From an uncultured virus (IMG/VR IMGVR_UViG_3300028903_000203) (lineage: Duplodnaviria; Heunggongvirae; Uroviricota; Caudoviricetes), in IMG/VR virus record IMGVR_UViG_3300028903_000203: a DNA stretch of 64,000 nucleotides; one strand, given 5' to 3'. The notes beneath the pieces are model-generated. The model had not been told where the DNA came from and made no database searches. It worked only from the letters and a program-made list of their open reading frames with translations. This document shows, one piece after another, positions 4,394-64,000 of the stretch. Numbering within the stretch: the stretch's first letter is position 1; each line of letters begins with the position of its first letter. The position numbers and the translations under genes were made by a program.

Positions 4394-6685
4394 ATGAGCT
4401 GCAAAGACGAAGCTGAGAAAGAAGCTGCGAACTTGGCCCCCGCCACGGGCGTAGCGCCCGGCCAGGTAGACGGCGGCGAGCGATGCGTGCGCGAGGGTTG
4501 TTCTGCCCTGGTGAACCTGGCAACAGGGTTGTGCGTCGAGGGCCATGCCCAGCATAGCGGCGGCCCAGACCTGGCGGTGGTGTGGAAAGGGAGCCATCCC
4601 GAGCAGTGGCAGTTTCTCCAGGATGCCCTGGCCGCCGACCCCGACAATGAGTTCTTCCGCAACCTGGTGGCGCAGATTGCCCGGCGTGGCAACCTGTCCG
4701 CCCGGCAGATGGCGGCACTGGAGCAGGCCCGCGGCGAAGGGCTCGACCAGGTGCGCGAGCGGCAGATGCTGCGGGCTAACAATGGCCCCTGGGCCGCCGC
4801 CGCGCGGTTGCTCGCACAGCTCCGACCGCTGGCCGACCGTAACCACCAGTCGTTGAACTATGAGGCGGCGGTGGAGATCGCTGCGCGACTGAATCAGCCC
4901 GGTGGGGAACAGTTGGTCCTGTCGCCGAAGCAGCGGCTGCTGATACGCGATGTGCTGCTGGGAGCCAGGACAGTGCTGGAAACCAGATTAGCCCAAGGCG
5001 TGCCGTGGCACGATGACATTGACTGGGGCGCAGCGCCCGCAGCGGTCGCGGTGGGCGCGCTTGATAGAGACGTGAGCTGCCAGCCGGAGGCGGCAGCAGT
5101 AGCGCGGCTTCAGGAGTTGGGCCAGGCAGTGGGAACGGTGACCCAAGCAATCCGGGCCGCCCTGCGGGCGGTGCGCCTGGTAGCAGGGGCGGAAGGGGAG
5201 CGCCCGTCCATGGGCATGCCCAAACGGGTGGTGTATGACCGCCAGAAAGGCTGGCGGGTCGTCTTAGAGACAACAGAGGGCACCCAAGAGCTACCGTTGG
5301 AGAACGTCACGGTACGGGCCTTGGACCTGGCCCCTACAGGCCGCTGCCTGCATCCAGGCTGCAATGCCCCGCTGGTGATTGGCGAGAATGTCTGCGCCCA
5401 TGGGCATGTCCAGGGGGCTGAAGGCGAGCGGGTGGGAGAAACCACGGCCGGCAAGGCCGGCCTAACCGCCCGCTCCTGGAGCCTGGTGCGCCGCTATAAA
5501 TGGATGGCTCCCGAAGACGCGGCCTTTGTGTCTTCGGCCAGCCTGGTGCAGCCTATGCCGGAGGCAGGCGTGCGTTGCCAGGTCTGCGGCCGGCCGTGTA
5601 CCGCCGAAGCTTATGAGGTTGAGGATGCGCGGGGCTTGGGCAAGGTAATGGTGGGCTCCGAGTGCGCCAAGAACCTACTGGGCAACATCAACTTCCGGGC
5701 GTTGCAGGAGCGCAAGCAAGAGGAAGAAGACGCGGGCGTGGCGGCAGCCCGCGCGGCCCAGGATCAGGAAGAGGCCGACCGCATCGCGGCGCTGCTGGCG
5801 ACATGGCAAGAGGAAAACCAAGGGCTGTGGCAGTTTCTACAGGAAGCCCATGCGGAGGACCCCGGCAACGAGTTCTTCCGCTCCCTGGATCAGCGGCTGC
5901 GCCGGCTGGGCGGTCTGTCCGAGGGGCAGATGAGCGCCCTGGAACGGGCGGCGGGATCGGGGCTTGACGAAGTGCGGCGACGGCGTGACCTGCGGGAGTC
6001 TGATGATGTTTGGGGGCGGGCGGTAGAGTTTGTCTTAGGGCGCATGAGTGTGAGCCGGCAGGACCCGGCGATTGCCATCCTGCGGGACATCAAAGGGCGG
6101 CGTTGGCAGGAGGCCGTGTCTCCGGTGAAGCGCGGCGGGCTGGCCCCTTTGACGGACAAGCAGCGCGGGGTGGTCCAGCGGGCGGCCCGCCGCTACGCCA
6201 AGAACCAGTTCTCCCCACACGTGCGGCGCAAAGACCGCCCCGATGACGATCTTTCCCCTGACTTCTGGTGGGAAGCGGTGTTCTTCCACGCGGCGCTGCA
6301 ATCCCAGGACTTGGCGCATGAGCCAGGGGACAGTGCTACCAGCACGCTGTACCGGGTGGCTAGCGTGCTGCGCGACGCGGCGGGTTCCCAGCACCTCTCC
6401 AGCACACGGGCGGCGGATGACATCGCTATCGTGGATGCCACTACGGGTGAGCCGGTTGTCATTGCCGGCCAGCCTATCACCCAAGTGGTGGTGCAGCAGG
6501 TCTACCTGGGGGATGACAACCAGTGGTATGTCGAGTGCGGGCTGCGGGCCCAGGAGACCCTCAGCGACTTGGGTATGTATGAGCGGCCCGTGGTTGCAGT
6601 GCCTATAGATGAATCAATGCAAGTCAGCGTGTTGACCGACCGCGGCCAGCCGTACTGGTGGTTGATGCCCAAAGAGGCGCAATGA
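4394..6685 (+). CDS. MSC-leader protein; duplicated F..L..Q...G.LS..Q helical module, internal second copy of the leader Zn finger, CxxC...GSEC Zn finger
   Basis: 763-aa ORF starting MSCKDEAEKE...GQVDGGERC...C...C..GHAQ. Confidence 0.85.
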   Translation: MSCKDEAEKEAANLAPATGVAPGQVDGGERCVREGCSALVNLATGLCVEGHAQHSGGPDLAVVWKGSHPEQWQFLQDALAADPDNEFFRNLVAQIARRGNLSARQMAALEQARGEGLDQVRERQMLRANNGPWAAAARLLAQLRPLADRNHQSLNYEAAVEIAARLNQPGGEQLVLSPKQRLLIRDVLLGARTVLETRLAQGVPWHDDIDWGAAPAAVAVGALDRDVSCQPEAAAVARLQELGQAVGTVTQAIRAALRAVRLVAGAEGERPSMGMPKRVVYDRQKGWRVVLETTEGTQELPLENVTVRALDLAPTGRCLHPGCNAPLVIGENVCAHGHVQGAEGERVGETTAGKAGLTARSWSLVRRYKWMAPEDAAFVSSASLVQPMPEAGVRCQVCGRPCTAEAYEVEDARGLGKVMVGSECAKNLLGNINFRALQERKQEEEDAGVAAARAAQDQEEADRIAALLATWQEENQGLWQFLQEAHAEDPGNEFFRSLDQRLRRLGGLSEGQMSALERAAGSGLDEVRRRRDLRESDDVWGRAVEFVLGRMSVSRQDPAIAILRDIKGRRWQEAVSPVKRGGLAPLTDKQRGVVQRAARRYAKNQFSPHVRRKDRPDDDLSPDFWWEAVFFHAALQSQDLAHEPGDSATSTLYRVASVLRDAAGSQHLSSTRAADDIAIVDATTGEPVVIAGQPITQVVVQQVYLGDDNQWYVECGLRAQETLSDLGMYERPVVAVPIDESMQVSVLTDRGQPYWWLMPKEAQ

Positions 6686-8271
6686 GCTGCAAAGGTGAGG
6701 CGGAAAAGGAAGCCGGCCAGCTCGAAAACGCCACGCGGATAGCCTTGGGCCAGGCCGACGCGGCGGCGCACTGCATCCACCCCGACTGTGAGGCGCACAT
6801 CAACCAGGCTACGGGACTCTGCACTCGGGGCCACGCCCAGCAGATTCCCGCGCAGGTCGAGCGGGACCCACAGACCTATACGCAGGCCCGCGACTGGGGC
6901 CAAGCCTTTGCCACGTTTCTAAGCACCTATGAGTATGCCTGGGGGCTGCGGAAAGAGGGCGTGCCCTGTGGGTGGAGTACCGGCGGTTGCCAGGTCTTGG
7001 CGGACGCGCTCCAGCTCTGGTTGGGCGAAGAAAACGTTATCCGGAGCATGTTCGCACAGGTGGGGGGCAATCTACCGGAGGGCCCACGAGCCGACCATGT
7101 GGTAACGCGCTGTGGCGTATGGTGTCTTGACGGCCTGGGGATACAGACGGAAGAGGCCCTCGTAGATTTATTTTTGCAGGATAAGGCAGAAGAGTGGGAC
7201 GAGCTGGAGGGTGGGGATGATGTGGGTGATGACTGGGAAGATGGGGAGCATAATCCCGAAAACTACGACTTGGTGCCTTATGACCCAGCAATCTTGGGCA
7301 CTATTCAACGCCAGCCGGAGATTTCCCAACGGCTGGCCGGGCTCTTGGCGCAGCGTTGGGACCGCGACGAGGTGCTGAGGCTACTCGGGACCCGGAGCAG
7401 CTCACGCCAGTTGCCCCTAGCGGTGCGGGACATCCCTCCTGGCCCCGGATTCGCGCGGGTCAACAACGCTGACGCCAACGGCCTACCCAACATCCACACG
7501 GGCGGCGTGTGGCGGAGCCCTGATGGGCGGGAGTACTGGAAGCCGCTCGACGGCCGGCCCTATAGCAACGCCGACTTCCACTTGCCGACGCAGGAAGCGG
7601 AGGCGTTGGAACTCATGGCCGATGTGCCAGGCTTTCCCCGCAACTGGCGGGTCGAGGAAATCCCGGTTGTGGTGGACGGCCAGACCTATACCCGGCGCTG
7701 GCTGGTGCGGGAACAGGTGTGGCCGGTGCCGGCGGAGTATCCCGCTGACCGCTTGCGCCTGGACGACGTGCGGGCTATCGAGGACGGGCTGCGGCGGCTC
7801 AACCAGCGCGGCTGGGGCATCGGCGATCACCTTTCCGTGGCTATAGACCGCCAGCGCCGGCCGCTTATCCTGGACCTCTCGGCGGCCGGCCCCGAGGAAA
7901 ACCCGGCGGCGGACGACACCGACCGCTTCCTGCGCTGGGCCGAGAGCATGGGCTATGGTCGCCTGGTGCAGTTACGGCGGGCCGGCCGGGACCTGACCGA
8001 TATGGCGAGCGCCTATGGTGACCCCCAGTGGCCGCGGGGGGAAGATGGCCGGCCCGACCTGGGCTACGTGCATGTGTATGCTTCACGTAACCGGCCGGCA
8101 GCGGCCACTTGGGTGGATGTGCCGGGCGCGCACTTCCGGGCCGGGGATGTGGCCCAAGAGGGGGTGCATACCTGGGTGGTAACAAAGGAGCCCTTGAGTG
8201 CGGAGCAAATCCAGCGGTTCGATCTCACCTGGGCCTGGAGCCCGGTGCGTTACAGCGGAGGTAGCGAATGA
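6682..8271 (+). CDS. MSC-leader protein; putative Cys-His-Asp (papain-like) domain and kinase-like domain
   Basis: ATGA overlap with the upstream gene; leader motif; GGCQVLADAL...HVV...CLDGLG; YWKP...E.EALE...LRRLNQRGW.IGD...LILDLS. Confidence 0.8.
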   Translation: MSCKGEAEKEAGQLENATRIALGQADAAAHCIHPDCEAHINQATGLCTRGHAQQIPAQVERDPQTYTQARDWGQAFATFLSTYEYAWGLRKEGVPCGWSTGGCQVLADALQLWLGEENVIRSMFAQVGGNLPEGPRADHVVTRCGVWCLDGLGIQTEEALVDLFLQDKAEEWDELEGGDDVGDDWEDGEHNPENYDLVPYDPAILGTIQRQPEISQRLAGLLAQRWDRDEVLRLLGTRSSSRQLPLAVRDIPPGPGFARVNNADANGLPNIHTGGVWRSPDGREYWKPLDGRPYSNADFHLPTQEAEALELMADVPGFPRNWRVEEIPVVVDGQTYTRRWLVREQVWPVPAEYPADRLRLDDVRAIEDGLRRLNQRGWGIGDHLSVAIDRQRRPLILDLSAAGPEENPAADDTDRFLRWAESMGYGRLVQLRRAGRDLTDMASAYGDPQWPRGEDGRPDLGYVHVYASRNRPAAATWVDVPGAHFRAGDVAQEGVHTWVVTKEPLSAEQIQRFDLTWAWSPVRYSGGSE

Positions 8272-9668
8272 GCTGCACAGGAGAGCGCAACAGACAGTCA
8301 AGGTTACTGGAGCGCGCCGCGCGGGTGGCCTCGGGCGGTGTGGCAGGGGCAGCCACTTGTCTTTATCCTGGTTGCGGCCAACCCCTGACCACCCAGCAGG
8401 AGTGTCCCCGCGGCCACAGCCAGTGTCCGGGCGATGTGGGCCGCGCCTTGTTGAACGCTACCCAGGAGTGGCGTACCCGCGAGCAGGCACGCCCTCAGCG
8501 TGATTGGGGCCAGGGAGCGACTCTGCATGGCTGGGACGCTGCCACTGCCCGCGCCAAGGCGGCCCTGGCCTGGGGCGTGGGCCACGAGGTGGGGGATGCC
8601 GAGCTGGAGAAACGGGCCGAGGATGCTGTCCAGGCGCTGGATCGCCTGGACAGCATCCAGGCGCTGGCCGGGGCCGAGCAGCTCTTGCAGCGGTTTGCAG
8701 CAGGACCCCTCTGGGATGAGCCGGACCAGGGGGTGCTGATCCAACTGGGGACGTATCTAATTCGGGCAGAACCGCCCGTTGATCTTCAGCCGATCCTGGC
8801 GCGGGTCCATGCCCGTGTTTCGCGCTTCCGGAGCGAGGGGTATGACGTGCCCGCGGAAGGCCGGGGCGAATATCAGCAGCTCGTGGCCCGCCTGGCGGAA
8901 CTGGAAACCTATGACGAGACCCTGGGCCGGCTGCAACGGCGCTATCCCGAACAGTTCCTGACCGAGGACCATGCGCTGCGGGCGCTGTTCTTCACCGGGT
9001 GCGGGTTCGATTGGGTGGGGGGGCAACTGGTGGATAGCTGGCCGACATTGGACGAGGAAATCACCGCGCGGGAGGCCGCCCACGCGGCCCGGATGCGCGA
9101 GCTGGATGAGCAGGATGCGGCGTTCGATGCCCAGTTGCGGGCGGCGGGCCGTGAACCCCCGCCACGGGAGCCGGTGCAACCCTACGTGCCGCCGCCGGTG
9201 ACCGCGGCTGATTTGGAGCTCGATGCATGGTCAGATTTGCAGCGCGTGCCGGAGAATGTGACCCCCAGTTGGCGCGGCGCGGCCCTGCGGGCCATCGCCC
9301 TGGCCCGCCGCCTGGGTTGGGATGACGGTCAGGACACCCTGGACACCCTGGAGTGGCGGCTCTGGCATCTGGGAGCTGAAAAGAAGCCGGAGCGGGAGCT
9401 GCCCACGAGCGGCGTCTGGGCCGACGAGACGGAGCGGGACAGCCAGGTCGGTGGAACCGCCCGTGATTGGCAGCGGGAACTGCAACTCAAGCATGAGCTG
9501 AGTAATGAGTGCTGGGACAGCGAAGGGGACACTTTTGGGCAGGTACGGGTGCGCATAGTCCGCGGGCAGTACGGGACCATGTTTGAGGGGTATTGCTCCC
9601 GCTGCGGCTGCATCAGCGAGGCGGACTATGAACCGGACCCGGACTTCGAGGCCCGTATCCGGTACTAG
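8268..9668 (+). CDS. MSC-leader protein with C-terminal Cys motif (paralog of 9677)
   Basis: ATGA overlap; leader MSCTGERNRQ; shares RLAELETYDET, WRGAALRAI.LARR.GW and CWDSE.DT.GQV.VR...C.RCG with the next gene. Confidence 0.85.
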   Translation: MSCTGERNRQSRLLERAARVASGGVAGAATCLYPGCGQPLTTQQECPRGHSQCPGDVGRALLNATQEWRTREQARPQRDWGQGATLHGWDAATARAKAALAWGVGHEVGDAELEKRAEDAVQALDRLDSIQALAGAEQLLQRFAAGPLWDEPDQGVLIQLGTYLIRAEPPVDLQPILARVHARVSRFRSEGYDVPAEGRGEYQQLVARLAELETYDETLGRLQRRYPEQFLTEDHALRALFFTGCGFDWVGGQLVDSWPTLDEEITAREAAHAARMRELDEQDAAFDAQLRAAGREPPPREPVQPYVPPPVTAADLELDAWSDLQRVPENVTPSWRGAALRAIALARRLGWDDGQDTLDTLEWRLWHLGAEKKPERELPTSGVWADETERDSQVGGTARDWQRELQLKHELSNECWDSEGDTFGQVRVRIVRGQYGTMFEGYCSRCGCISEADYEPDPDFEARIRY

Positions 9669-9676
9669 GAGGCGCT

Positions 9677-10999
9677 ATGAGCTGTACCGGGGAGAAGAAA
9701 GAGCAATCAGAGGTCTTGGCGCAGGCATCCCGGATCGCCGGCAGCCAGGTGGATGGGGCAGCCCATTGTTTGCATCCGGGCTGCAACCAACCGCTCAATG
9801 CTGCCCAGGAGTGCTCTCGGGGGCATAGCCAGCACCCTGCTGATGTGGTGCAGGCGCTAATCGCTGGCTGCCAGAAGTGGCGGTCTGAGGAACTACAGCG
9901 GTTGTATGCCAGGGAATGGGGCCAGGGTGATACAGCGTATGGCTGGAGTATCGCGGAGGCGCGAGTCAAAGCAGCGCTAGCCTGGAGCGCAGCGCAGGAA
10001 CTGGACGGGAACGGCGACTTGGCCGCACAGGCCCAGAACGAGGTCGCGTGCCTGGAGCGCATGGACCGCATGCAGGCCGTCCACGCGGCGCATGCCCTGC
10101 TGGACGAGTGCCAAGCTAGCCCCCAGTTCGACGCAGTGGATCGCTTGGTGTTGGGGCAACTGGCGCGCTACTACACGGACGCCCCGCCTGCTGACCCCGC
10201 GCCCATTCTACGCCGGGCCCACACGCGGTTGCAGGGTTTCCGTGACAGTCCGGAGGGGCCGGCCCCGCACCCGGTGGCCTGTGAGCTATTGCGCCAACGG
10301 CTGGCGGAACTGGAAACCTACGATGAAACGCGGGCGCGTCTGACGCGGCAGTATCCACACCAGTTCCCGAGCGAAGACCGTATACTCGCTCACCTCTTCT
10401 TCCAGCCCACTGGCGGTGGCATGGATTGGGAAAACGGGCAGCTCGTGATGAGTTGGCCGACGCCAGACGATGAACTAGAGGAGCGCCGTCAGCACCATGG
10501 TATCTGGCATCCGGGGCAGCTACCTACGGACCCGCGATTGACTGATCTCCCGGCTTACGACCCGGCGGCTCCGCCCCCACTGCTGCGCGCCCCCGTTGAT
10601 GTGACCTCGGATTGGCGAGGGGCGGCCCTGCGTGCTATCGAGCTGGCCCGCAGATTCGGCTGGGCCAACGAGGAGACTCTGGCGGCGGCCGAGTGGCGGC
10701 TCTGGCATCAGGGGCAGGAAAAGCCGCAGAGTGCGATACCCCAAAGAGGTGTCTGGGCGGACGAGGACGACAGCAAGCCGGGGAAGGTAGCACAGGACTG
10801 GCAAAGACTACTACAACGTGAACATGAGCAAAGCGGCGACTGTTGGGACAGCGAATGCGACACCTACGGGCAAGTTCAGGTGCGCGTGGTACGGGGCCAG
10901 GACGGGATCACCTTTGAGGGGCATTGCACGCGCTGTGGTTTCATCGAAGAATGTGACTATGATCCTGACCCCGACCGCGAGGCGCGTGTGCGCTACTAG
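9677..10999 (+). CDS. MSC-leader protein (paralog of 8268)
   Basis: AGGAGG RBS; leader MSCTGEKKEQ; similar to the upstream gene over its full length. Confidence 0.85.
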   Translation: MSCTGEKKEQSEVLAQASRIAGSQVDGAAHCLHPGCNQPLNAAQECSRGHSQHPADVVQALIAGCQKWRSEELQRLYAREWGQGDTAYGWSIAEARVKAALAWSAAQELDGNGDLAAQAQNEVACLERMDRMQAVHAAHALLDECQASPQFDAVDRLVLGQLARYYTDAPPADPAPILRRAHTRLQGFRDSPEGPAPHPVACELLRQRLAELETYDETRARLTRQYPHQFPSEDRILAHLFFQPTGGGMDWENGQLVMSWPTPDDELEERRQHHGIWHPGQLPTDPRLTDLPAYDPAAPPPLLRAPVDVTSDWRGAALRAIELARRFGWANEETLAAAEWRLWHQGQEKPQSAIPQRGVWADEDDSKPGKVAQDWQRLLQREHEQSGDCWDSECDTYGQVQVRVVRGQDGITFEGHCTRCGFIEECDYDPDPDREARVRY

Positions 11000-11009
11000 G
11001 CGCGGCAGT

Positions 11010-11060
11010 TGGGGGGCAGGTCGGCCCCCTATAGACGCCAGCGCAGCCGGCGTGTACAAT
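11010..11060 (+). promoter_or_regulatory. Array promoter copy 2
   Basis: TGGGGGGC-aggtcg-GCCCCCTA, then TAGACG-N17-TACAAT. Confidence 0.7.
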
Positions 11061-11107
11061 GATACTTGTGCGCAGACCACCAGGCACAGGTTATAAGGAG
11101 AACCGTG

Positions 11108-12934
11108 ATGAGCTGCAAGGAATACTGGGAACAACAGTTGGCCGGGCCGCTGGCTACCGCCACGCGAGTTGCGCCAGGGCAAGTTGATGGGGCGGAGCGG
11201 TGTGCCCATGAAGGCTGCAACTTGCCCATCAGCCGCGCCACGGGCAAGTGCCCACGGGGACATGCGCCGGCCGGCCAGTCTACACAGGGGGCCCCCACCA
11301 TCACGGCGAGCCTGCTTTGCGTACTGGAGGAAGCCGGCGCTTTCTCTCCGGCCTTCCAGGTCGAGCGGGCGGTGGCGCGCCGCCTGGCCGTAGGTGACGA
11401 GTACGAAGACAGCACCCCCGAAATGCAAGCGGCGGCACAGGTGCTGCTGGATAGAGTCGAGGAACTGGTGGCGTGGGGGGGTATTCTCCGCACGCGCCTC
11501 GACCGCGGGCATTATGATGAAGCGCTCGCCGCCCTGTCCCGGGCCTACGGGGATGAAGAGATGGAGGAGACTGATGTCGTAGCCGCCACCCAGGAGGGCT
11601 TTCTCTCCGACGACGGTACGGTGCGGGCCGCGGCTGGGCCGCTGTGCTATGCGTTGGAGAACCTGCTCGTGCGGCAAATGCTGGAGGATGAAGCGGACAA
11701 GGCCAGCGTCAGCCGGGCATTGGCCCAGGCGTATGGCGCTCCGGAGTTGACTGACGCCCAGGTACTCAGCATAGCCGTGCGGGCCCAATCTGCGGAAGCG
11801 GAGCGGTCGGAGGAACTTGCTACCCAGCGCGCGGACGCGCGCACGTTGCAGGTGGTAATGGCGGGGGGAGCACAGTCGCCGGCCCTCCCCCTGCCCGAGG
11901 AAGACCCGGTGCGCCGGCTTCTATATGAGGTCGATGAGCTGCGTGATGCCGGGACAAACCTGGAGGGTGACCCCCGCGTGCGGGCGGCCCGCGCGTACTT
12001 AGAGGCGCAGGACCGCACCTGGTGGGAGGCCCCCTCGCTGGAAGCGGCGCTGAAAGCATGGCCGGCCGCCCCCAACCAGCTCTTCGAGGAAGCCTTCTAC
12101 CAGGTGACCGGCCGCAGCATCGTCGTGGAATATGACGGGCCGCCGGATGACCCCGCGGCGGAGGACGGTCCCCTGGTGGTAAGCTGGTCCCAGCAGCAGG
12201 GGATAACGGACGCCTCGCTGGAGTTACTGCGGGTGGTGTTCCCCGGCGTGCCGGAGCGGGCCTGGGTGCGGGAAGAGGGCCCCAACGACACCCAAATCTT
12301 TGGCCCCGACGGGCAGCGGGCGCGGGTGCGGGTGGTCACTCCTGATGGGACCCCGGCCGTAACGGCGCTGTTGCCCCATCCCGCCGCGTGCTGGCAAGCG
12401 CTGCAAGCGACCCACCGGCGCAGCGGTATAGTGCGGCCCCCAGACTATACTCAGGTCAGCACGGTGACCAGGTGGCGAGGGGAAGCCTTCACCCAGCTAA
12501 AGCAAGCCGCCTGGGGAACCGTGAAAAAGCGCTACGGGCTGCACCGGCTGCCGCCGCGGAGCGGGCGCGTTGGGGAAAGCGCCTTCCGGGTGCCGGGCCT
12601 CTGGCGCAGCAACAGCGGCATCGAGGCATCGGCGGCCGAGTGGGCGTTGCGTTACGTGTTGGTGGCCGGCGAGGACCCCCCTTTGGCCGGCACCAGCCCC
12701 GCCGATCAGGCCGCCTGGGGCGAGCAGATGTATGCGCGCCTGCGGGAGGTTGATTGGGGGGACGTGCGGGCCTACTTTGGGGTGGACACCCGCCTGCGCT
12801 CCGGACATCGGCCCCTTGGGGAAAGCGCCTTCCGTGTGGAGGGGCTGTGGCAGGACGCGGCGGGCCACACGGGTTCGGCCGCGGAATGGGTCTTGCGCTC
12901 GGTGTTGGTAGATGGGCCAGCCGGTCAGTCATAG
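11108..12934 (+). CDS. MSC-leader protein with duplicated C-terminal GESAFRV.GLW...SAAEW.LR.VLV module
   Basis: AAGGAG RBS; ATG 11108 begins MSCKEYWEQQ. Confidence 0.85.
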   Translation: MSCKEYWEQQLAGPLATATRVAPGQVDGAERCAHEGCNLPISRATGKCPRGHAPAGQSTQGAPTITASLLCVLEEAGAFSPAFQVERAVARRLAVGDEYEDSTPEMQAAAQVLLDRVEELVAWGGILRTRLDRGHYDEALAALSRAYGDEEMEETDVVAATQEGFLSDDGTVRAAAGPLCYALENLLVRQMLEDEADKASVSRALAQAYGAPELTDAQVLSIAVRAQSAEAERSEELATQRADARTLQVVMAGGAQSPALPLPEEDPVRRLLYEVDELRDAGTNLEGDPRVRAARAYLEAQDRTWWEAPSLEAALKAWPAAPNQLFEEAFYQVTGRSIVVEYDGPPDDPAAEDGPLVVSWSQQQGITDASLELLRVVFPGVPERAWVREEGPNDTQIFGPDGQRARVRVVTPDGTPAVTALLPHPAACWQALQATHRRSGIVRPPDYTQVSTVTRWRGEAFTQLKQAAWGTVKKRYGLHRLPPRSGRVGESAFRVPGLWRSNSGIEASAAEWALRYVLVAGEDPPLAGTSPADQAAWGEQMYARLREVDWGDVRAYFGVDTRLRSGHRPLGESAFRVEGLWQDAAGHTGSAAEWVLRSVLVDGPAGQS

Positions 12935-12955
12935 CGCAATCGGAGGAGAGTAGTC

Positions 12956-14236
12956 ATGAGCTGCAAGGATTACTGGGAGAAAGAGATGGCGGGGTGGCTG
13001 GGAGCGGCCAGCCGGGTGGCTCCGGGCCAGGTGAACGGGGCGGAGAAGTGCTCCCATGCCGGTTGTAACCTGCCCATCAACCGGGCCACGGGGAAATGTC
13101 CCCGTGGGCATGTGGTGCAACCGGCCTACCCATCTGAGATCGAGGCCGTTGCTTGTGCGTTGCGAGACGTGGAGTGGACGGCGGACACGCTGCCCCTATT
13201 GCGCTGCCAGGCAGCCTTGGCCGCCCGGCAGGGCGACCCCGGCCGTTGGCAGCGGGACGGCACGCCCGAGCTGGCCGCTGCGAACGCGCTGTTCGACGCG
13301 GTGGCGGCGCTGGTGCGCGAGGGCGGGTATCCCCCGGCGGCCATCCGGGCACTGGCGACAGCCTATGGTCATCCCAGTATGAGCGAGGCGGACGTCGGAG
13401 ATGCGGTAGCGCTCAGCGAGCTACCCCAGGCGGTAGGCTTGGGGGCGGCAGTAGGACCGCTCCGGGCAGTCCTAGAAGAAGTCGTGGGGCAGGGGCTGGG
13501 CTATTGGCCCCGGGCGGAGGTGCAGGCGCAGGGCGAGCAGGCGTTGGCGGCGGTCTATGGCGATCCCGAGTTGCGGCCGGCTGACGTGACCAGTATCGCC
13601 CGCGTGGCTTGCGCCAGCACGACGGCTACCGACCGGGAGCTGGTGTACGCCCGTCTGGGCCGCGACCTGCTGGGGTTGGTGCCCCGCACGATGGAGGCCG
13701 ATCCCCGCGTGCGGGTGGCGGCGGTCCGCTTCGCCGCTACTGGGTTGCCCCCGGTAATCGGGGTCGGGCAGGACTCGGAAGGCTGGCAGATAGGCATTGA
13801 TACGACCCGCTGGACCGTGACCCGCAGCCAAAGCGGGGCGTTCTCCGAGGAGCCATTGGCCGCGTATCTGGTTTCGCCCCGCTTCCACCTCCCACGGGGA
13901 GACTTGGTGGCCGCAGGCGAGCCCTATCTGCCCGGCGAGCGGGGCGCGGTGGCGCGGGCGCTCCTGGCCCACGTACCGGAGAGCCAGTGGCCGGTGGAGG
14001 TGCGGCGGGTGTTGGTGGAGTTCCTGGCGGCCGACCTCACGGATGCGGAAATCCGGGCCCGCGGAGAGGACCTGGGCTACGGCGGCGAGTTCGGCTTGTG
14101 GTCGGGCGGCGATGACAAGGACGAAGCCGGCATGGTGCGGGATTACATGCAGGAGAATAACGCCCCTTTGGACGAGGCCATCCACGAAACTGTGCGCACC
14201 CGGCAGTACCGCGAGGTCGCGGCCGATGAAGAATGA
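12956..14236 (+). CDS. MSC-leader protein, unknown cargo (N-terminal half related to 11108)
   Basis: GGAGG RBS; MSCKDYWEKEM leader; shares AYG...M.E.DV and GPL...LE with 11108. Confidence 0.85.
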   Translation: MSCKDYWEKEMAGWLGAASRVAPGQVNGAEKCSHAGCNLPINRATGKCPRGHVVQPAYPSEIEAVACALRDVEWTADTLPLLRCQAALAARQGDPGRWQRDGTPELAAANALFDAVAALVREGGYPPAAIRALATAYGHPSMSEADVGDAVALSELPQAVGLGAAVGPLRAVLEEVVGQGLGYWPRAEVQAQGEQALAAVYGDPELRPADVTSIARVACASTTATDRELVYARLGRDLLGLVPRTMEADPRVRVAAVRFAATGLPPVIGVGQDSEGWQIGIDTTRWTVTRSQSGAFSEEPLAAYLVSPRFHLPRGDLVAAGEPYLPGERGAVARALLAHVPESQWPVEVRRVLVEFLAADLTDAEIRARGEDLGYGGEFGLWSGGDDKDEAGMVRDYMQENNAPLDEAIHETVRTRQYREVAADEE

Positions 14237-14266
14237 ATCGGTGTAGCTGGCCGCAAGGAGCAACTG

Positions 14267-15571
14267 ATGAGCTGCAAGGATGCCTGGGAAAAAGAGGTGG
14301 CGCAGTGGCTGGCGGGGCCGGCGAAAGTGGCCCCCAGTCAGGCCGACGGCGGCCAGCGCTGCACGCACGCTGGTTGTGACGCTCTGGTGAATCAAGCCAC
14401 AGGGGTGTGCGTCAAGGGGCACCGCCAGGGCACGGCGGTGAGCGTGCCCGCCGACGAACAGATGGTGGAGGCCGCGCAGACCGCGTATGATGGCAGCGAG
14501 ATACAGGTGGACGCCGAGGCTACTGTGTCCCGCTCGGACGAGAACGAAGACAAGGGGGCCTATGTAGAGGCGTGGATCAGGTTGGATGCGGAGGAGGTGG
14601 GCGACGCCGACGATGCGGCGCTCATTGCTCTGGCCCAAGAGCAGTATCAGGAGGGGGGCACCCTGGAGATAGATGACGGGGCCGTGGTCACCCGCGACGG
14701 GGAGACGGTTCTGGTGCAAGGCTGGGTCTGGGTTTATGACGATGCGGTCCAGCCGGCGAAGGGAGAAGCGGCCGAGCCGGGGGCGAAGGGCGTGTGTGAC
14801 GGGCTCCTGTGTCTGCTAGGTGAACTCCAAGCGCAGGGGCTGATCGAGCCCGGAGATCGCCCTATCGGGTTAGACGAGCCCGACCGAGCCATCCGCCAGA
14901 TGCTGGATAGCATCGACTGCCGAGTGGGAATAATGGGGAACTATGAGCTGGGCAGGGCCTTGCCCCAGGAGCAGGCAGTAGCGATTTTCGACGACCCGCG
15001 CGTGCTGGCGGCACGCCGTTATCTGGCCGTCCAGTCGGGCTATGCTCCTGCCGAGGCCCCCGCCGCGCTGGCTCGGGAAATCACGGCCATGGTAGACACC
15101 CTGCGGGGGGATGATCCTCGGGAGGGTATCGTATACCGACTGAGTGAGCTATACGATGCGCTGGCTGAGCATGGCTATGGGGATTGGCAGAGCGCCGTGG
15201 GTTACTTGGAGGAAGCGCTCGCCATGGTGGGGCTGCGCGGAGTAGCGGCAGGTCTGTCGTCGGAACCGGCGGAAACGCGCACCCGCGAAACACCCGAACT
15301 GCTGGCTGCTAGCCTTTACCAGGCGCTGCGGGCCGACCGCGACGGCGAGTTCGTGCCGGAGATGCTGGATGGTGCGGCAGCAGTGCTGAGGAATCTGGGG
15401 GAGGAGGAAAGCGACTGGCTGGAGGAAGATGAGGAGACTGGGGCGCGGTTGTGGCGGGCGGTCGGGAACGCCCGGGAGGTAGCGGTCGAGCTGCGTTCCA
15501 TGTATCGGCGGCTGGGCGACCTGGCGGGGGTATCAAATGCACCGGATGAGGCCCGCCGGAGGTCGAGATGA
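14267..15571 (+). CDS. MSC-leader protein with duplicated acidic I.VD..A.V.R...V..W module
   Basis: AAGGAG RBS; MSCKDAWEKEV leader. Confidence 0.85.
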   Translation: MSCKDAWEKEVAQWLAGPAKVAPSQADGGQRCTHAGCDALVNQATGVCVKGHRQGTAVSVPADEQMVEAAQTAYDGSEIQVDAEATVSRSDENEDKGAYVEAWIRLDAEEVGDADDAALIALAQEQYQEGGTLEIDDGAVVTRDGETVLVQGWVWVYDDAVQPAKGEAAEPGAKGVCDGLLCLLGELQAQGLIEPGDRPIGLDEPDRAIRQMLDSIDCRVGIMGNYELGRALPQEQAVAIFDDPRVLAARRYLAVQSGYAPAEAPAALAREITAMVDTLRGDDPREGIVYRLSELYDALAEHGYGDWQSAVGYLEEALAMVGLRGVAAGLSSEPAETRTRETPELLAASLYQALRADRDGEFVPEMLDGAAAVLRNLGEEESDWLEEDEETGARLWRAVGNAREVAVELRSMYRRLGDLAGVSNAPDEARRRSR

Positions 15572-16173
15572 GTTGTAAGAACGAAGCTGAAGCAGAAGGC
15601 AAGGCGCTAGAACCGGCCACCAGGACCACCCTGGCCCAGGCCGACGCCGGCCCGCGCTGCACTCGTGAGGGCTGTACGGCACGGGTCAACCAGGCCACGG
15701 GGCGCTGCACGGCGGGCCATGCCCAGGAGCCAGAGGGGGACGACCTCTTCACCGGAGCCGACCTGCTGTACGCGACGACGCGGGCCTCTCTCCTGGAAGA
15801 CGGCTACCTGATCGATGTGACGGAGCAAGCTCGGGAACAAGGTTTCCGCTGGCCGGTCGCCGTCTCCCGCGCGGTCTGGGATATGGTCAAGGACATTCCC
15901 CCGCCATTTCAGAGAGAGCAAACCGTCGAGGCCCGCTTGCGCGACGTGCTTTTGGTGGCGGCCATACGGGCGCGTATTGCGGTGGGGGCAAAGCAGGAGC
16001 CGCCTTTCTACTACAAGATGACGCTCTATAACTCGGACAGCACCGATTGGGACACGTGGGTAGAGGGCGAGGATAAAAGCGTAGGCAAGGTGGTGCTGAA
16101 GATAACGATAGACTACGCCGCGCCCGACGACCCGCAGCCCTGTTATACCATCTCCTTGCCTGACGAGGACTGA
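15568..16173 (+). CDS. MSC-leader protein with DUF6573-like cargo
   Basis: ATGA overlap; TRASLLEDGYLIDVT..AREQGFRWPVAVSRAVW...RLRDVL...CYTISLPDED matches the DUF6573 pattern as recalled. Confidence 0.8.
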   Translation: MSCKNEAEAEGKALEPATRTTLAQADAGPRCTREGCTARVNQATGRCTAGHAQEPEGDDLFTGADLLYATTRASLLEDGYLIDVTEQAREQGFRWPVAVSRAVWDMVKDIPPPFQREQTVEARLRDVLLVAAIRARIAVGAKQEPPFYYKMTLYNSDSTDWDTWVEGEDKSVGKVVLKITIDYAAPDDPQPCYTISLPDED

Positions 16174-16195
16174 GTACACAGACCGGAGGTTGGCC

Positions 16196-18136: not shown

Positions 18137-18147
18137 CGAGGTGGAGT

Positions 18148-18702: not shown

Positions 18703-18713
18703 GAGGTTGTACC

Positions 18714-19844: not shown

Positions 19845-19862
19845 ACGGTATAGGAGAACGCG

Positions 19863-21845: not shown

Positions 21846-21870
21846 GCGGGCAACGACGTGGAGCAAGCCG

Positions 21871-24817: not shown

Positions 24818-24831
24818 GCTCCAGTCACGGT

Positions 24832-24859
24832 TGCTTTACTGCGAAATCCAACTAAAGCA
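24832..24859 (+). repeat. 28-bp dif-like site, copy B (overlaps recombinase stop codon)
   Basis: TGCTTTACTGC-GAAATC-CAACTAAAGCA with terminal 7-bp inverted repeats. Confidence 0.75.
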
Positions 24860-25994: not shown

Positions 25995-26085
25995 AGATAC
26001 CTCACGGCAGGGCACGTAAGCGGCGGTCGATAACTGTTCCCACCTATTATAATACACGAATGCCCCGGCCTGGTAGTGCCGGCGC

Positions 26086-26138: not shown

Positions 26139-26157
26139 ACTATTTTGTCATCTCGAC

Positions 26158-52547: not shown

Positions 52548-52556
52548 GAGGTGGCG

Positions 52557-52793
52557 ATGCAAGTGCGTTTCTATGTGACCAGAACGCAGCGCGACAATCC
52601 GGGTCAGGACCTGGCGGCGACGATTATCCTAGCCCCTGACGGGCAGCTTACGATGACTGGCGAGGGGGACTATCTCGACCTGCTCTTTGACCATGGCGAG
52701 CGGGCGGCCGGCCGAGAAGCGGTGGAAAAGGCCATGCGGGACGCGCCCTACCGTTTTTCCGGTGGCTACCTGCGGGCCGCCTTCGAGGAGTAG
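52557..52793 (+). CDS. Small leaderless hypothetical protein (candidate kinase immunity/partner)
   Basis: AGGAGG RBS; 78 aa directly after the two kinases. Confidence 0.7.
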   Translation: MQVRFYVTRTQRDNPGQDLAATIILAPDGQLTMTGEGDYLDLLFDHGERAAGREAVEKAMRDAPYRFSGGYLRAAFEE

Positions 52794-52796: not shown

Positions 52797-54248
52797 ATGA
52801 GCTGTACCGGCGAGAAGAAGGCGCAATCGCAAGCGTTGGCCGCGGCAGCCCGCGTGGCGGGGGACCAGGTGGATGGGGCGCAGCGCTGTATCTACCCGCG
52901 CTGCAACCGGCCCTTGAACACGCAGCAGGAGTGTCCCTGCGGCCACAGCCAGTGTCCCACCGACGTGGCGCGGTCGCTGCTTCTGGAGAGCAGGTCGTGG
53001 CTGAGCAACCGGGGTCAGTCTCTGCTGACTCGGGAACTAGCTGAGGAAGATGCGGCGCTGGCGCGGGCGGTAGCCGCGGAACAGCACGATCTCCTGCTTT
53101 TGGAAGAAGCCGAGAGTGTGCTGGCGCGATTAGCTCTGGACCGGCGGCAGGGGCGGGCGCGGGCTGGGTTGGAGGCCGAATTGGAGCGGGCGCACCCCGA
53201 CTCGCGCTGGTTCTGCCGCATTGTCGGTGCGCACGCGCTCGAGGTGTGGCGCAATGAACAGGTGGCCGGAATGGCCAGTCTGCTCGACGCGGAGGCGGTT
53301 ATCCAGCACCGGCTGGATGTGGACAGGCTGCTGGAGAATCTAGCGTTGGACCCGGCGATGGCTGCGGCCCAGAAACAAGCGCGGCTGGCCGCACCTGCCA
53401 ACCAACGCCGGGTAACGCTGCGGGCCGAGCGGCGCGCGTGGTCGCTGGCCGATCCCCACCGCCCAGTCATCGACTATCTGGAACGGCTGCCGACCGGCAG
53501 CACCATGACTGTGGTGGAAGCAGCCGTGGCGGGGTGGCCGGAGGCCGAAGCCTTGCGGGGCCAGTGGACGGCGGTAGAAACGCCGGACCTCGGGCGGGTC
53601 TGGGTGCCCCTGGGCGAGCCCCCCGGCCGGCCGGACTACCGGCTCACCCGGGACTTTGGCTTGTTGGGCGAGGTGACCAACCGGGTTAGCGATGCCCTGG
53701 AGGTGGGACCCGACCTCGACCCCACGGACGTACGGGAGCGAGTGCGGCGCGCTGATTACAATGCTGTGCTGCTGGAAGTGCGCCGAGAGATAGAGCATGA
53801 CCAGGCCGACGAGCGGGAGATTGACATAATACTAACGGGCATGCGAAGGAGCCCGGTCGCCACAACCGAGGAGATGCTGCAACGCCTGCATGATGAGCAG
53901 GGGGCTCCGCCACCGCCCGAGGTGTGGGCGGCCCTGGGCCGGCTCGAGACGCTGGTGCAAGCGCTGCGCGAGCGGCTGGAACAGGGCACCCCGCCAGTGG
54001 AGTGCCGGCTGGCGTGGCAGCGGCGGCTGGCCTGGGTGCGGTCCATCCAGCGCCACAACCTACCGGACGTGCGGCGGGAACTGGAAGAACGCGGGCTGGC
54101 CGCAGACCGCTGGAGCTGGCGCAGCAACCTGACGGGGATCGAGGGCATGCTTCGCTGGGTGCTGGCACGGGATGCCGATTTGCGACTGGGGGACGCGGAG
54201 ATGCACCCGCCGGTGGAGGACGCTGCCAGGGCTAGCCCAAGGGAGTAA
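52797..54248 (+). CDS. MSC-leader protein, unknown cargo
   Basis: GAGGAG RBS; MSCTGEKKAQ leader. Confidence 0.85.
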   Translation: MSCTGEKKAQSQALAAAARVAGDQVDGAQRCIYPRCNRPLNTQQECPCGHSQCPTDVARSLLLESRSWLSNRGQSLLTRELAEEDAALARAVAAEQHDLLLLEEAESVLARLALDRRQGRARAGLEAELERAHPDSRWFCRIVGAHALEVWRNEQVAGMASLLDAEAVIQHRLDVDRLLENLALDPAMAAAQKQARLAAPANQRRVTLRAERRAWSLADPHRPVIDYLERLPTGSTMTVVEAAVAGWPEAEALRGQWTAVETPDLGRVWVPLGEPPGRPDYRLTRDFGLLGEVTNRVSDALEVGPDLDPTDVRERVRRADYNAVLLEVRREIEHDQADEREIDIILTGMRRSPVATTEEMLQRLHDEQGAPPPPEVWAALGRLETLVQALRERLEQGTPPVECRLAWQRRLAWVRSIQRHNLPDVRRELEERGLAADRWSWRSNLTGIEGMLRWVLARDADLRLGDAEMHPPVEDAARASPRE

Positions 54249-54333: not shown

Positions 54334-56496
54334 ATGAGCTGTAAGAACTTCTGGGCCCAGGAAATTGCCGGCCGTCTGCAAGGTACTGCGCGGGTGGCGG
54401 CCGGCCAGGTGGATGGCGCAGCGCGCTGCACCCATGAGGGTTGCGACGCCCTCGTGAACCTGGCGACCAACTGCTGCGTGCGCGGCCATGCCCAGGGACC
54501 GATGCATGGGGTTGCCTATGCTACTGCCCTGGCCGGCGCGCTGGCCTGCGCAGCGCGCGAGGCAGTGCAGCGGGGGCAGGTGGAAGTCACACCAGCGGTG
54601 GAGCAACTACTACGCACCGACACCGAGCACCGGGTACGTGAGCTGCTTGGGCAGGAGCGGGTTGCCGCCGAGCTGCGCACCGCCGACCGCGTGACGGTGC
54701 TTAGCCTGCGGGACCGGGTCCAGGTCGTGACCCGTTCCGATACGGTTCAGACCAACTTCATGCAGGAACGGGCCGGCGCATTGCACGTCGAGGAAGAGCA
54801 TTTCGGGAACTATGACCTCTCCAGGCGGTCAGCCGACATCGTGGACGACTACGTGGCCGCCCGCCTCCGGCGGGGCTGGCGGGAGCACTGCCGGCTGTGT
54901 GGCCAGTTCCTGCCGGACGAGGGGGAGCATACCTGCCCAGAGGGGCGGGACGAAGCTGCCGAGGCCGCACAGACTATCCAGACGGCCATGCATGTCTTGG
55001 GTGACCTCGATGCTCGGGCGAAGCGACACGACCCACGGGTGCAGGCCGGCCGGGCCTATCTTGCCGCGAGGGCGGTGAGTGCCACCCCGACAGATGCGCC
55101 CGCCCCCGCGCTGCCGGCGGCGGAACACCTGGCGTTTCTGCAAAGGGAGATCATGACGGCAGGCGACAGCGACGTGTTCGAGGACTATGAGCTTGACGAG
55201 GCCATGATGGCCCAGGTGGAGCAGGACGTGAACCAGGCGATCTCCGGCGTCACAACTCCTACCCTGGCTGGCTCCCTCCGTTACTTCTTGGACGAGGTGC
55301 TGGAGCCTTTCCAGGAGAGCGGCTTATTTGAATCCTACGCGAGCGAAGACCCCGATTATAGCGACAAATGGGTGACGGCCCTGGACGAGGTGCGCCGGTA
55401 TCTGGGGGACGCAGTGCCCATTTCCCGGCCCCTGCCCCGCGCGGGGGTACTCGACGCGCTGGGGCAGGCTGTCAAGCAAGCAAAGACGGACCTGGGGCGC
55501 ATTATGCCCCAGGTTGAGCCCAGCGGCGACCGCGAGCAGCCCGGTTGGCAGACTATCAAGGAACTCCAACGGGCGCTCCGGGCGTATGAGCGGAAGCCGC
55601 AGTCCATGGCGGCGCAGACAGCGCTGCTGGCCGCGGCCCGTTGTGCGGACGCCGACCTCCAGGGCATCATGCCGGAGTTCGAGCCCAGCGGTGACAAAGA
55701 AGACGAGGGCTGGCGCACGCTGCGCGACCTGGGCCGGGCCATCCGGGATGCAGAGCTGAGTCCGCCCATCGTCGAGCAAGAGTATGACGGCGACCTGGGG
55801 AATGCCCCTATCGCGGAGATGGCAGCGCAGCAAACACCCGATGCTCCGCCCGTGCTGCTCCAGGAGAAGGAGGGCAGCCAGAGCATGCTGCTCGTCAACA
55901 TCAACGGACAGGGTGTAGCGGCCCACATCCTGGATGATGGCGTCATCCTGGACTTGGCCGGCTACGACACCAAGACGGCGGCTGAGGGGTACGGCGGTGG
56001 TCTGGTCTACCTGGCCCTGGAGGAGGACGGTACTCCGTTTCTGTACGTCTGGGCGGATCGCGGTGAGGAGGACCCCACGCACATTATCGGTCTGGGAGGG
56101 GCCGCAGAGCGTTACCGCGTCTTGGAAGAGGACGAGCCGGCAGGGGAGGTTACCCGCGGGCGGCCTTGGCACGAGGCTGATCCGGCTGCGCCGGGGCGCG
56201 GGCAGGTGGTAGCGTTAACGGGGCGGGATGAGCCCCCCGCCGTAGCCACGCGCTGGGACAACGAGCAAGCCGGGGCCGTGAGTATTGAGCCCAACGGCGT
56301 GTCCCTGGATGTGCGCGGGTACGGCACCGCCGCGATGGCTCCTGGTTATGGCGGCGGCATTGTTCACCTGGACTTGTTCCATCCGAAGGCCCCCGTTCTG
56401 CTGGTGTGGGCGGACGTCAACTATGAGGAACCCACCCACCGCATTCCCTTAGCTGGCGCGCGGGAACCGCGCGCGAAAAGTAGGAGGCGCCAATGA
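54334..56496 (+). CDS. MSC-leader mosaic protein with duplicated C-terminal LD..GY...GGG.V.L...VWAD...PTH.I.L domain
   Basis: GGAGGAG RBS; MSCKNFWAQE; also a duplicated DL..IMP..EPSGD.E..GW.T motif. Confidence 0.85.
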   Translation: MSCKNFWAQEIAGRLQGTARVAAGQVDGAARCTHEGCDALVNLATNCCVRGHAQGPMHGVAYATALAGALACAAREAVQRGQVEVTPAVEQLLRTDTEHRVRELLGQERVAAELRTADRVTVLSLRDRVQVVTRSDTVQTNFMQERAGALHVEEEHFGNYDLSRRSADIVDDYVAARLRRGWREHCRLCGQFLPDEGEHTCPEGRDEAAEAAQTIQTAMHVLGDLDARAKRHDPRVQAGRAYLAARAVSATPTDAPAPALPAAEHLAFLQREIMTAGDSDVFEDYELDEAMMAQVEQDVNQAISGVTTPTLAGSLRYFLDEVLEPFQESGLFESYASEDPDYSDKWVTALDEVRRYLGDAVPISRPLPRAGVLDALGQAVKQAKTDLGRIMPQVEPSGDREQPGWQTIKELQRALRAYERKPQSMAAQTALLAAARCADADLQGIMPEFEPSGDKEDEGWRTLRDLGRAIRDAELSPPIVEQEYDGDLGNAPIAEMAAQQTPDAPPVLLQEKEGSQSMLLVNINGQGVAAHILDDGVILDLAGYDTKTAAEGYGGGLVYLALEEDGTPFLYVWADRGEEDPTHIIGLGGAAERYRVLEEDEPAGEVTRGRPWHEADPAAPGRGQVVALTGRDEPPAVATRWDNEQAGAVSIEPNGVSLDVRGYGTAAMAPGYGGGIVHLDLFHPKAPVLLVWADVNYEEPTHRIPLAGAREPRAKSRRRQ

Positions 56497-63762: not shown

Positions 63763-63775
63763 CCGGAGGCGTGCG

Positions 63776-64000
63776 ATGTCCTGTAAGGACTTCTGGGAAA
63801 AAGAGATGGCGGGCCGGTTGGCGGGGCCGGCGCGGGTCGCGGCCGGCCAGGTGGATGGGGCGGAGCACTGTGTTGTACCTGGCTGCCCCCAACTTGTAAA
63901 TCGGGCCACCGGGCGCTGTGTCGGTGGCCATGTCCAATATCGTCGCCAGACCCCTGACCAGGCCCGGGCGTTGGTCGAGGCCCTGGCGTGCTGCACCCGC
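63776..64000 (+). CDS. MSC-leader protein (3'-truncated by window edge)
   Basis: GGAGG RBS; MSCKDFWEKEMAGRLAGPARVAAGQVDGAEHCVVPGC...CVGGHVQ is open to the end of the window. Confidence 0.85.
   Translation, partial: MSCKDFWEKEMAGRLAGPARVAAGQVDGAEHCVVPGCPQLVNRATGRCVGGHVQYRRQTPDQARALVEALACCTR

Follow-up and report, generated by a model that had tools for sequence, protein, structure and literature searches.

The leader-gene array

The window analysed here is a 64-kb stretch of DNA (64,000 nucleotides; G+C 64–68%, GC skew positive throughout) from the uncultured Caudoviricetes record IMGVR_UViG_3300028903_000203 of IMG/VR, and negative results on neighbouring machinery refer to these 64 kb. It carries 37 genes, all on the + strand (12 in 4394–23208 and 25 from 27367 to the window edge), that share one N-terminal leader of about 55 residues fused to varied downstream sequence, here called cargo. 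The array and its leader domain are real, strongly non-random and apparently undescribed. Both the count and the coordinates given in a first-pass annotation of this DNA were reproduced by an open reading frame (ORF) scan and by a pattern scan: open frames of at least 100 residues beginning M[ST]C on the + strand numbered 35, and the remaining frames added two members (g10 at 18714, with a GTG start, and g37 at 63776, which the window edge truncates); a strict pattern (start, 22–34 residues, then the Cys/His spacing) gave 36 matches on the + strand, with none on the − strand or in any of 20 trinucleotide shuffles. The one gene missed by the strict pattern is g17 (33523–33978), in which the leader head is present and the finger is lost. 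Array features, all on the + strand, are as follows.

4300–4360 (+): hairpin (GGGGGCC-N4-GGCCCCC) with −35/−10-like element, copy 1, before g01
4394–6685 (+): g01, 763 aa, leader and cargo of unknown kind; second, internal CCCH-Q finger at aa 318
6682–8271 (+): g02, 529 aa, leader and C-terminal module that looks kinase-like (aa 240–529)
8268–9668 (+): g03, 466 aa, MSCTGE-type leader; paralogue of g04
9677–10999 (+): g04, 440 aa; paralogue of g03 (47.6% over 412 aa)
11007–11060 (+): hairpin with TAGAC-17-TACAAT element, copy 2, before g05
11108–12934 (+): g05, 608 aa, leader and cargo of unknown kind related to P0026 and g06
12956–14236 (+): g06, 426 aa
14267–15571 (+): g07, 434 aa, cargo singleton
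15568–16173 (+): g08, 201 aa, leader and DUF6573 (40.7 bits, cut-off 27)
16196–18136 (+): g09, 646 aa, leader and SWIM zinc finger
18148–18702 (+): degenerate member, 184-aa ORF with a finger-like remnant, no MSC head
18714–19844 (+): g10, 376 aa, GTG start read as M-S-C
19863–21845 (+): g11, 660 aa, weak TPR match
21871–23208 (+): g12, 445 aa, Cys in place of the finger His
27263–27317 (+): hairpin with TAGACA-18-TACAAT element, copy 3, before g13
27367–28845 (+): g13, 492 aa, paralogue of g14
28901–30388 (+): g14, 495 aa; identity to g13 85.7% in the leader, 47.2% in the rest
30405–32051 (+): g15, 548 aa
32093–33520 (+): g16, 475 aa
33523–33978 (+): g17, 151 aa, leader head only; C-terminal part resembles P0089
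33988–34749 (+): g18, 253 aa
34765–36036 (+): g19, 423 aa
36033–37802 (+): g20, 589 aa, shared C-terminal module, helical and SH3/Tudor-like
37792–39588 (+): g21, 598 aa, paralogue of g20, with the same C-terminal module
39578–40744 (+): g22, 388 aa, leader, ArdC-N single-stranded DNA (ssDNA)-binding domain and HEWAH metallopeptidase motif at aa 294
40756–41286 (+): leaderless 176-aa ORF within the array
41283–43415 (+): g23, 710 aa; its full-length relative P0080 has the other leader type
43425–45080 (+): g24, 551 aa, shared C-terminal module
45135–47018 (+): g25, 627 aa
47094–48599 (+): g26, 501 aa
48614–50623 (+): g27, 669 aa, with the shared C-terminal module (fold-model query)
50633–51580 (+): g28, 315 aa, MTC start, PI3/PI4-kinase-like (borderline Pfam match; partial TIGR03843 match)
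51591–52547 (+): g29, 318 aa, paralogue of g28; CxxC...CxxC finger
52551–52793 (+): leaderless 80-aa ORF, in the longest internal gap of the array
52797–54248 (+): g30, 483 aa
54251–54304 (+): hairpin with TAGACA-17-TACAAT element, copy 4, before g31
54334–56496 (+): g31, 720 aa; C-terminal 235-aa module common to g34 and P0072
56493–57716 (+): g32, 407 aa
57779–58825 (+): g33, 348 aa
58962–60974 (+): g34, 670 aa; second finger at aa 162; aa 160–282 73% identical to P0074
60971–62605 (+): g35, 544 aa
62665–63762 (+): g36, 365 aa
63776–64000 (+): g37, cut by the window edge; identical to residues 1–75 of P0012 (730 aa)

The genes are tightly packed, with a median intergenic gap of about 13 nt, 9 overlaps and 33 of the 39 gaps no longer than 62 nt, and a Shine–Dalgarno core (GGAG, GAGG or AGGA) lies 4–18 nt before the start in 35 of the 37. 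Three leaderless small ORFs stand among them; the degenerate 38th member at 18148–18702 has no MSC head. Complete array proteins measure 151–763 aa (median 487). A hydrophobic segment, borderline in each case, is present in 2 of 36, and inspection of the N-termini revealed no obvious signal peptide; the products appear to be soluble. A stable hairpin (GGGGGCC-N4-GGCCCCC) occurs in four longer gaps (before g01, g05, g13 and g31), each time with TATAGAC(A) immediately after it and TACAAT 17–18 nt further on; the exact string GGCCCCCTAT(A/T)G(A/C) is repeated in all 4 copies between hairpin and TACAAT. Because this hairpin and −35/−10-like element is shared, the array probably comprises at least four co-regulated units.

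Sequence, structure and lineages of the leader

The leader has a fixed order: M-[S/T]-C, a helix, an RVAxGQVDG turn and a C-x4-C-x10/11-C-x3-H-x-Q finger. M1, C3, L14 and C47 are invariant across the 37-leader alignment; among the 35 leaders with a canonical finger, M1, C3, L14, C31, C36 and C47 are invariant and S2, Q24, H51 and Q53 are conserved in at least 90%. The finger is altered in g17 (lost), g29 (CxxC...CxxC for Cx4C...Cx3H) and g12 (Cys for His). In a wider alignment of 94 sequences, which has its own numbering, M1, C3, C32, C37 and C48 are invariant, position 52 is His in 88 and Cys in 6 and nothing else, position 27 is Asp in 73 and Asn in 10 (non-Asp in 21 overall, as N, A, S, E or G), and position 28 is Gly in 81. 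This pattern suggests that C32, C37, C48 and H52 form a metal-binding knuckle and that D/N-G at 27–28 makes a tight turn. The members had been described as diverging after about 55 residues, which is not always so: a second helix with an L-x-C motif, at about residues 65–80, continues the similarity in many of them. The finger on its own recurs inside at least eight members (g01, g34, P0002, P0003, P0009, P0074, P0075 and P0098), and therefore only residues 1–28 are strictly N-terminal.

At shared residues the same codon is used with a frequency of 0.473 (15,288 leader comparisons), where codon usage predicts 0.438; Ser2 is encoded by AGY in 30 leaders and by TCN in 6, and the invariant Cys residues use TGC about as often as TGT. 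Synonymous sites in the leaders are thus near saturation, so that selection acts on the protein, and because codon choice is near expectation, leader conservation reflects neither a DNA repeat nor recent gene conversion. An AlphaFold2 model built on the 94-sequence alignment (pLDDT 87.9) consists of a helix at 3–19, a short turn, a small beta finger at about 31–52, a less confident linker and a helix at 64–79.

The first-pass annotation did not recognise the leader as a described family, and the searches support this. None of 35 leaders matched any Pfam family below E 0.03; Pfam, NCBIfam, PHROGs and PADLOC gave no match over the first 55 residues of 36 proteins, and PDB sequences gave none to the leader. 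Fold searches with the leader model were likewise negative (Foldseek against PDB, best E 3.7, and a BFVD fold search, best E 2.2, both not significant; a Foldseek-independent scan of 48,161 chains with VIA-align, no Z ≥ 2), small zinc fingers appearing among weak, non-significant rows only. A limited literature search found no description of the family in print.

A profile of the 35 leaders was compared with 1.84 billion cluster representatives (E ≤ 0.001), yielding 102 matches, of which 96 are N-terminal members and 6 are proteins of finger repeats alone. The start is strict: 95 of the 96 begin exactly M-x-C, with no extension (residue 2 is Ser in 69, Thr in 15, Asn in 8 and Val in 3). Thirty of the matches are window proteins or their fragments (P0012 is g37), and since six window genes are absent from the matches, counts for the family are lower bounds. 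A second leader type, MTC/MNC, begins MTCGDKFNKNCPTGG... or MNCSDKFR... and carries EEVDG; by its sequence it is clearly the same module as the window leader.

Arrays are a family trait, in that several contigs hold at least two members each. Contig placement, which used exact look-ups of 30 proteins and two relative tables, put at least 12 further members on the 449,756-bp metagenomic contig of the window, making at least 49 there, and found other multi-member contigs of 34,010 bp (at least 4), 11,082 bp (3), 11,998 bp (2) and 4,574 bp (2). Contigs of 32,371, 30,700 and 18,252 bp also carry family members. Array DNA was found in activated-sludge and anaerobic-digester metagenomes of several studies, and the leader family has so far been found in wastewater-type metagenomes only. 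No leader was found with two leader patterns in one genome per GTDB species, in a leader scan of the JGI metagenome collection, or in a tblastn search of one leader against INPHARED phages and PLSDB plasmids. One plasmid match (H33) seemed to overlap the leader and was rejected, its translation showing a stop codon and no leader. Three metatranscriptome libraries contain short identical contigs on the array (17, 10 and 9 pieces), which are compatible with transcription without showing it, because such libraries can hold DNA; stretches of the array that these pieces leave uncovered carry no information. A 90-aa protein, P0047, has its first ~49 residues as in g22 and then diverges; it has the look of a frameshift product or variant of the ArdC-like gene in another assembly.

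Within the two leader types and between them, leader and cargo identities relate differently. Window leaders are on average 46.1% identical to one another (595 pairs) and leaders of the MTC/MNC type 57.7% (171 pairs), against 32.6% for pairs that cross the types (665 pairs). For five of six paralogue pairs within the window, the leader (61–86%) is more conserved than the cargo (43–53%), the exception being g28/g29 (leader 29.6%, cargo 46.9%), in which the finger type itself has changed; for eight of nine cargo pairs that cross the types, the leader (30–44%) is less conserved than the cargo (39–59% over 136–445 aligned aa), the exception being g23/P0080 (leader 35.8%, cargo 31.7%). Because the relation reverses between and within types, leaders track lineage and cargo tracks type. 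Such a pattern would fit the behaviour expected of a tag fitted to one lineage-specific, drifting partner, and it lends new support to the earlier idea that all members share a common partner.

Cargo modules and neighbouring genes

The cargo had been called unrelated, which proved overstated: 23 of the 36 complete proteins have at least one in-window BLAST relative beyond residue 58 (E ≤ 1e-3), leaving 13 singletons, and modules are shuffled among members. When 102 sequences were compared (36 from the window and 66 others), 44 were linked by shared modules in differing orders, and the cargo therefore appears to be a mosaic rather than simply unrelated. The domain labels of the first-pass annotation fared unevenly. 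Those for ssDNA binding (Pfam ArdC-N, PF08401, in g22; 39.5 bits against a cut-off of 22.6) and SWIM (g09; 34.8 bits against 19.6) stand, the kinase label is borderline (PI3_PI4_kinase in g28, 27.0 against 27.1; for g29, only a partial match to TIGR03843), and those for protease and solenoid lack comparable support, the Peptidase_M78 and TPR matches falling below their Pfam cut-offs. In g22, ArdC-N is followed by an HExxH motif (HEWAH at aa 294), the arrangement of ArdC. ArdC-like relatives of g22 occur in 1,613 plasmid records, 834 of them conjugative and 368 mobilizable (1,202 together), and relatives of DUF6573 in 166, of which 129 are conjugative. Cargo of other family members includes HEAT repeats, GNAT, a Mg-chelatase/ComM-like AAA+ ATPase, HAD-like and ATP-dependent DNA ligase domains.

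One C-terminal module is common to at least 11 proteins and was modelled (pLDDT 85.3) as a helical part followed by an SH3-like barrel, which resembles Tudor, PWWP, BAH and KOW domains (Z up to 8.6), a common small fold and hence not decisive. The C-terminal 290 residues of g02 also occur as stand-alone proteins of about 300 aa (P0104–P0117) with no Pfam domain; this module has invariant Lys, Glu and three Asp residues, an ESM Atlas kinase feature score of 0.96 and a TM of about 0.5 to Pkinase models, so that, judged from these models, it and P0104–P0117 look kinase-like. Searches for relatives of the g31 C-terminal module and of the leaderless 176-aa ORF returned one each.

Four genes outside the array were considered alongside it.

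1672–3408 (+): HEC-07 homologue, 578 aa, upstream of the array (PADLOC, E 3e-117)
23226–24491 (+): CoiA-nuclease-like protein (weak match, N-terminal part), 421 aa, several Cys clusters, no leader
24852–26093 (−): tyrosine recombinase, divergent from the 25 downstream genes
26492–27205 (+): RlpA-like product, by eye, with a hydrophobic N-terminal stretch that is a candidate signal sequence

The last three fill the 4-kb gap at 23226–27367 between the two parts of the array. The tyrosine recombinase matches the TIGR02249 integron integrase at 55.6 bits, against a cut-off of 265; its best match is an XerA/XerC-like recombinase, also below cut-off, and its best plasmid-borne relative is from Thermomicrobium roseum (28.9% identity), too distant to indicate a phylum. 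The recombinase gene starts directly at an AT-rich palindrome of 27 nt (CATAATTGCGCCATAATTGCGCTATAA and its complement; window 26091–26186), and beside this palindrome, facing the opposite way, is a near-consensus promoter, TTGACA-17-TATACT. The RlpA-like product resembles RlpA/3D double-psi barrels by eye, with no Pfam match reaching E 0.01; mobile elements often carry cell-wall enzymes of this kind. Together with ArdC-N and HEWAH in g22 and DUF6573 in g08, the integrase and RlpA-like protein in the gap would give the locus a mobile-element flavour.

Upstream, HEC-07 is described as a candidate RelE-domain anti-phage defence protein (bioRxiv 10.1101/2024.01.29.577857). The frame at 2–1471, upstream of the HEC-07 homologue, ends in two ribbon-helix-helix-like stretches, and its product could be the partner of that homologue.

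Candidate roles of the leader

We tentatively favour, with somewhat less than even confidence, a leader that serves for docking or addressing and that one lineage-specific partner recognises. The first ~55 residues would act at the protein level, residues 1–28 (Met1-x-Cys3, the helix and the RVAxGQVDG turn) being the N-terminus-specific part and residues 29–55 a small, putatively metal-binding Cys3-His knuckle, and a single partner, common to all members of a genome and different between lineages, would read the module. Member proteins, presumably soluble and cytoplasmic, would be made from at least four co-regulated operons headed by the hairpin-plus-promoter element. The tag would thereby gather a large, old and modular repertoire at one place (an ArdC-like ssDNA-binding metallopeptidase, DUF6573, three kinase-like kinds, SWIM, HEAT/TPR solenoids and SH3/Tudor-like barrels, and elsewhere in the family DNA ligase, a ComM-like AAA+ ATPase and GNAT). 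As a best guess, that place may belong to a large mobile element, as its apparatus for DNA transfer or establishment or as its very DNA.

The first-pass annotation had read the leader as an address tag that loads its proteins onto one delivery route or docks them on one scaffold. The address part of that idea agrees with a leader that is N-terminal, undescribed, under selection and arrayed; the delivery or scaffold part found no counterpart in the window, where Pfam, NCBIfam, PHROGs and PADLOC scans revealed no type IV secretion system, capsid, contractile-system or scaffold gene, and where none of 44 proteins scanned belonged to sheath, tube, baseplate or loading-ATPase families. IMG/VR scans with five leader sub-alignments gave one true match, contig L001; the match of L002 is limited to residues 17–29 and was set aside, those of L003–L005 are to the C-termini of unrelated radical-SAM-like proteins and were discarded, and three further IMG/VR scans gave no matches. 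On L001, the leader gene P0030 adjoins a tape-measure and tail module with 57% G+C, compared with 66%. A 70% identical relative of this module, L007, has no leader gene. In the place where L007 has capsid and other genes, L001 keeps only the last ~55 residues of one gene, at 7084–7491 (−); the full gene, a Cys-rich phage gene of 530 aa, lies in L007 at 2520–4112 (+), and the break marks where a prophage was truncated beside P0030. With its upstream genes truncated relative to L007, L001 is taken to be a prophage remnant, and the adjacency looks incidental; no leader gene was thus found within a phage structural module, and P0030 was dropped as evidence of a phage link.

Several points weigh against a docking or addressing module. 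The window yielded neither a partner or receptor gene nor one for secretion, packaging or a scaffold, and the sole phage neighbourhood found is that truncated prophage of different G+C. The finger, being also internal in at least eight members, may be a general-purpose module rather than a pure address, and systems that thread unfolded substrates would hardly be expected to use a folded metal-binding domain as their signal. A set of at least 49 genes would far exceed any known payload set. Finally, leaders may long ago have undergone gene conversion, or lineages may have traded cargo modules, either of which could produce the lineage pattern, and the MTC/MNC set may derive from only a few organisms. 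A more specific proposal, doubtful in our view, is an undescribed addressing system for proteins: the 55-residue tag, by its zinc knuckle and free Met-x-Cys N-terminus, would route at least 50 modular proteins of one genome (anti-restriction, kinase-like, ligase, AAA+ and solenoid types among them) to one co-evolving receptor. In that case the receptor could be the port at which a very large mobile element loads a machine for DNA transfer, particle packaging or assembly inside the cell.

Three known arrangements resemble such a tag in part. Cellulosome dockerins are small metal-binding docking modules carried by dozens of proteins per genome and fitted to a species-specific scaffold; they are extracellular, mostly C-terminal and calcium-binding, whereas the array proteins have no noticed signal peptide, and no dockerin Pfam match was found in window proteins or leaders. 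PVC/eCIS payloads carry an N-terminal leader of tens of residues on unrelated proteins, as far as the available parts of two sources describe them (PMC10097599, PMC11495950), and resemble the array in this and in their co-directional genes; they differ in that the window has no sheath, tube, baseplate or Pvc15-like gene, that our leader is predicted to be folded and is Cys-rich, and that the gene number is far above that of a payload region. Polyvalent proteins of conjugative elements and phages have an N-terminal domain, the ArdC-N header, that is proposed to link what follows it in the protein to the delivery of DNA (Iyer et al. 2017, PMC5512222). The leader family likewise combines ArdC-N and a metallopeptidase motif with kinases, GNAT and nucleic-acid binders in shuffled modules, but these domains lie on dozens of separate tagged proteins rather than on one giant polypeptide, and in g22 the tag precedes ArdC-N.

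If the leader were instead a generic nucleic-acid-binding zinc finger, it would tether each enzyme or binding module to DNA or RNA with neither receptor nor addressing, which we regard as unlikely. The PF24906 (Zf_WRKY19) type of CCCH finger has the same Cys/His spacing as the leader finger, and the leader profile retrieves finger-repeat proteins, two of which carry Zf_WRKY19 (P0085 at 38.2 bits and P0087 at 28.6 bits). The internal finger copies in eight members point the same way, as do ArdC-N, SWIM, DNA ligase, the ComM-like AAA+ ATPase and the Tudor/KOW-like barrels among the cargo. However, none of 35 leaders reaches the 24-residue PF24906 model or any other Pfam zinc-finger model, and the leader differs from PF24906 in adding an N-terminal 28-residue element and a conserved GH-x-Q. 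Its mean net charge is near neutral (+0.7 over residues 1–55; +1.5 for the finger), and tethering to nucleic acid leaves unexplained the M-x-C start of 95 members, the invariant Cys3 and the faster divergence of leader than of cargo between lineages.

Homotypic adaptors, in which leaders would bind one another as proposed for bacterial effector-associated domains (EADs) and Death-like domains and build mixed complexes around a leader-bearing core, seem to us quite unlikely. Their closest model is EAD1–10 of NTP-dependent conflict systems, which, in the portion of Kaur et al. 2020 available (PMC7159879), number 19 in each of two cyanobacteria, are closest to lineage-specific paralogues and are proposed to couple proteins to a common core. 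The leader family has the same architecture, a small terminal non-enzymatic module on diverse effector and signalling domains with many paralogues per genome, and P0065 and P0094, with their Mg-chelatase/ComM-type AAA+ ATPase, could supply a core. Against this, library scans of the window revealed no copy of an EAD core (VMAP, iSTAND or other STAND, GAP1, vWA-MoxR). EADs are described in that portion as helical or alpha+beta, without the term 'Zn-ribbon', and their genes as scattered or paired rather than in arrays of dozens, whereas the leader combines a fixed M-x-C start with a Cys3-His finger and is present in at least 49 copies on one contig, in tight tandem operons.

Improbable, too, is a cleavable or regulatory propeptide, whether residues 1–27 were removed after (Q/E)-V-D|G or Cys3 and the finger controlled the entire repertoire together, by sensing metal or redox state or as a degron. 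In its favour, Met1 and Cys3 never vary, and the (Q/E)VDG motif, with D in 73 and G in 81 of the 94 sequences, resembles Asp-specific cleavage sites; the string GQVDG also occurs in Taspase1 literature. In 21 of the 94, however, position 27 is N, A, S, E or G, so that a structural D/N-G beta-turn fits better than an obligate Asp-specific site, and no protease gene was seen beside the array. An integron-like cassette array or a polymorphic toxin/immunity array, in which conserved 5' ends would serve recombination, is very improbable and largely refuted by the spacing and codon data: the divergent tyrosine recombinase (24852–26093, −) is its one attraction, and yet that protein falls far short of the integrase cut-off, the array runs on upstream of it in the same direction, the short gaps and overlaps leave no room for attC sites between promoterless cassettes or for a small immunity gene after each toxin gene (three leaderless small ORFs for 37 genes), the near-saturated synonymous sites place leader conservation above the DNA level, and no polymorphic toxin trafficking or toxin Pfam family was found in 36 window and 71 other proteins.

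Even on the plainest reading, that of a shared zinc finger, the leader is still an undescribed domain family, and its paralogues number at least 49 on one contig, compared with the 19 per genome quoted for EAD adaptor domains in the accessible part of PMC7159879. If the leader is a true address, bacteria or their mobile elements would have in it a new means of loading or assembling dozens of different proteins, and its 55 residues could serve as a portable handle in protein delivery or scaffolding; the array would then be a ready-made catalogue of cargo, most of it without a known family.

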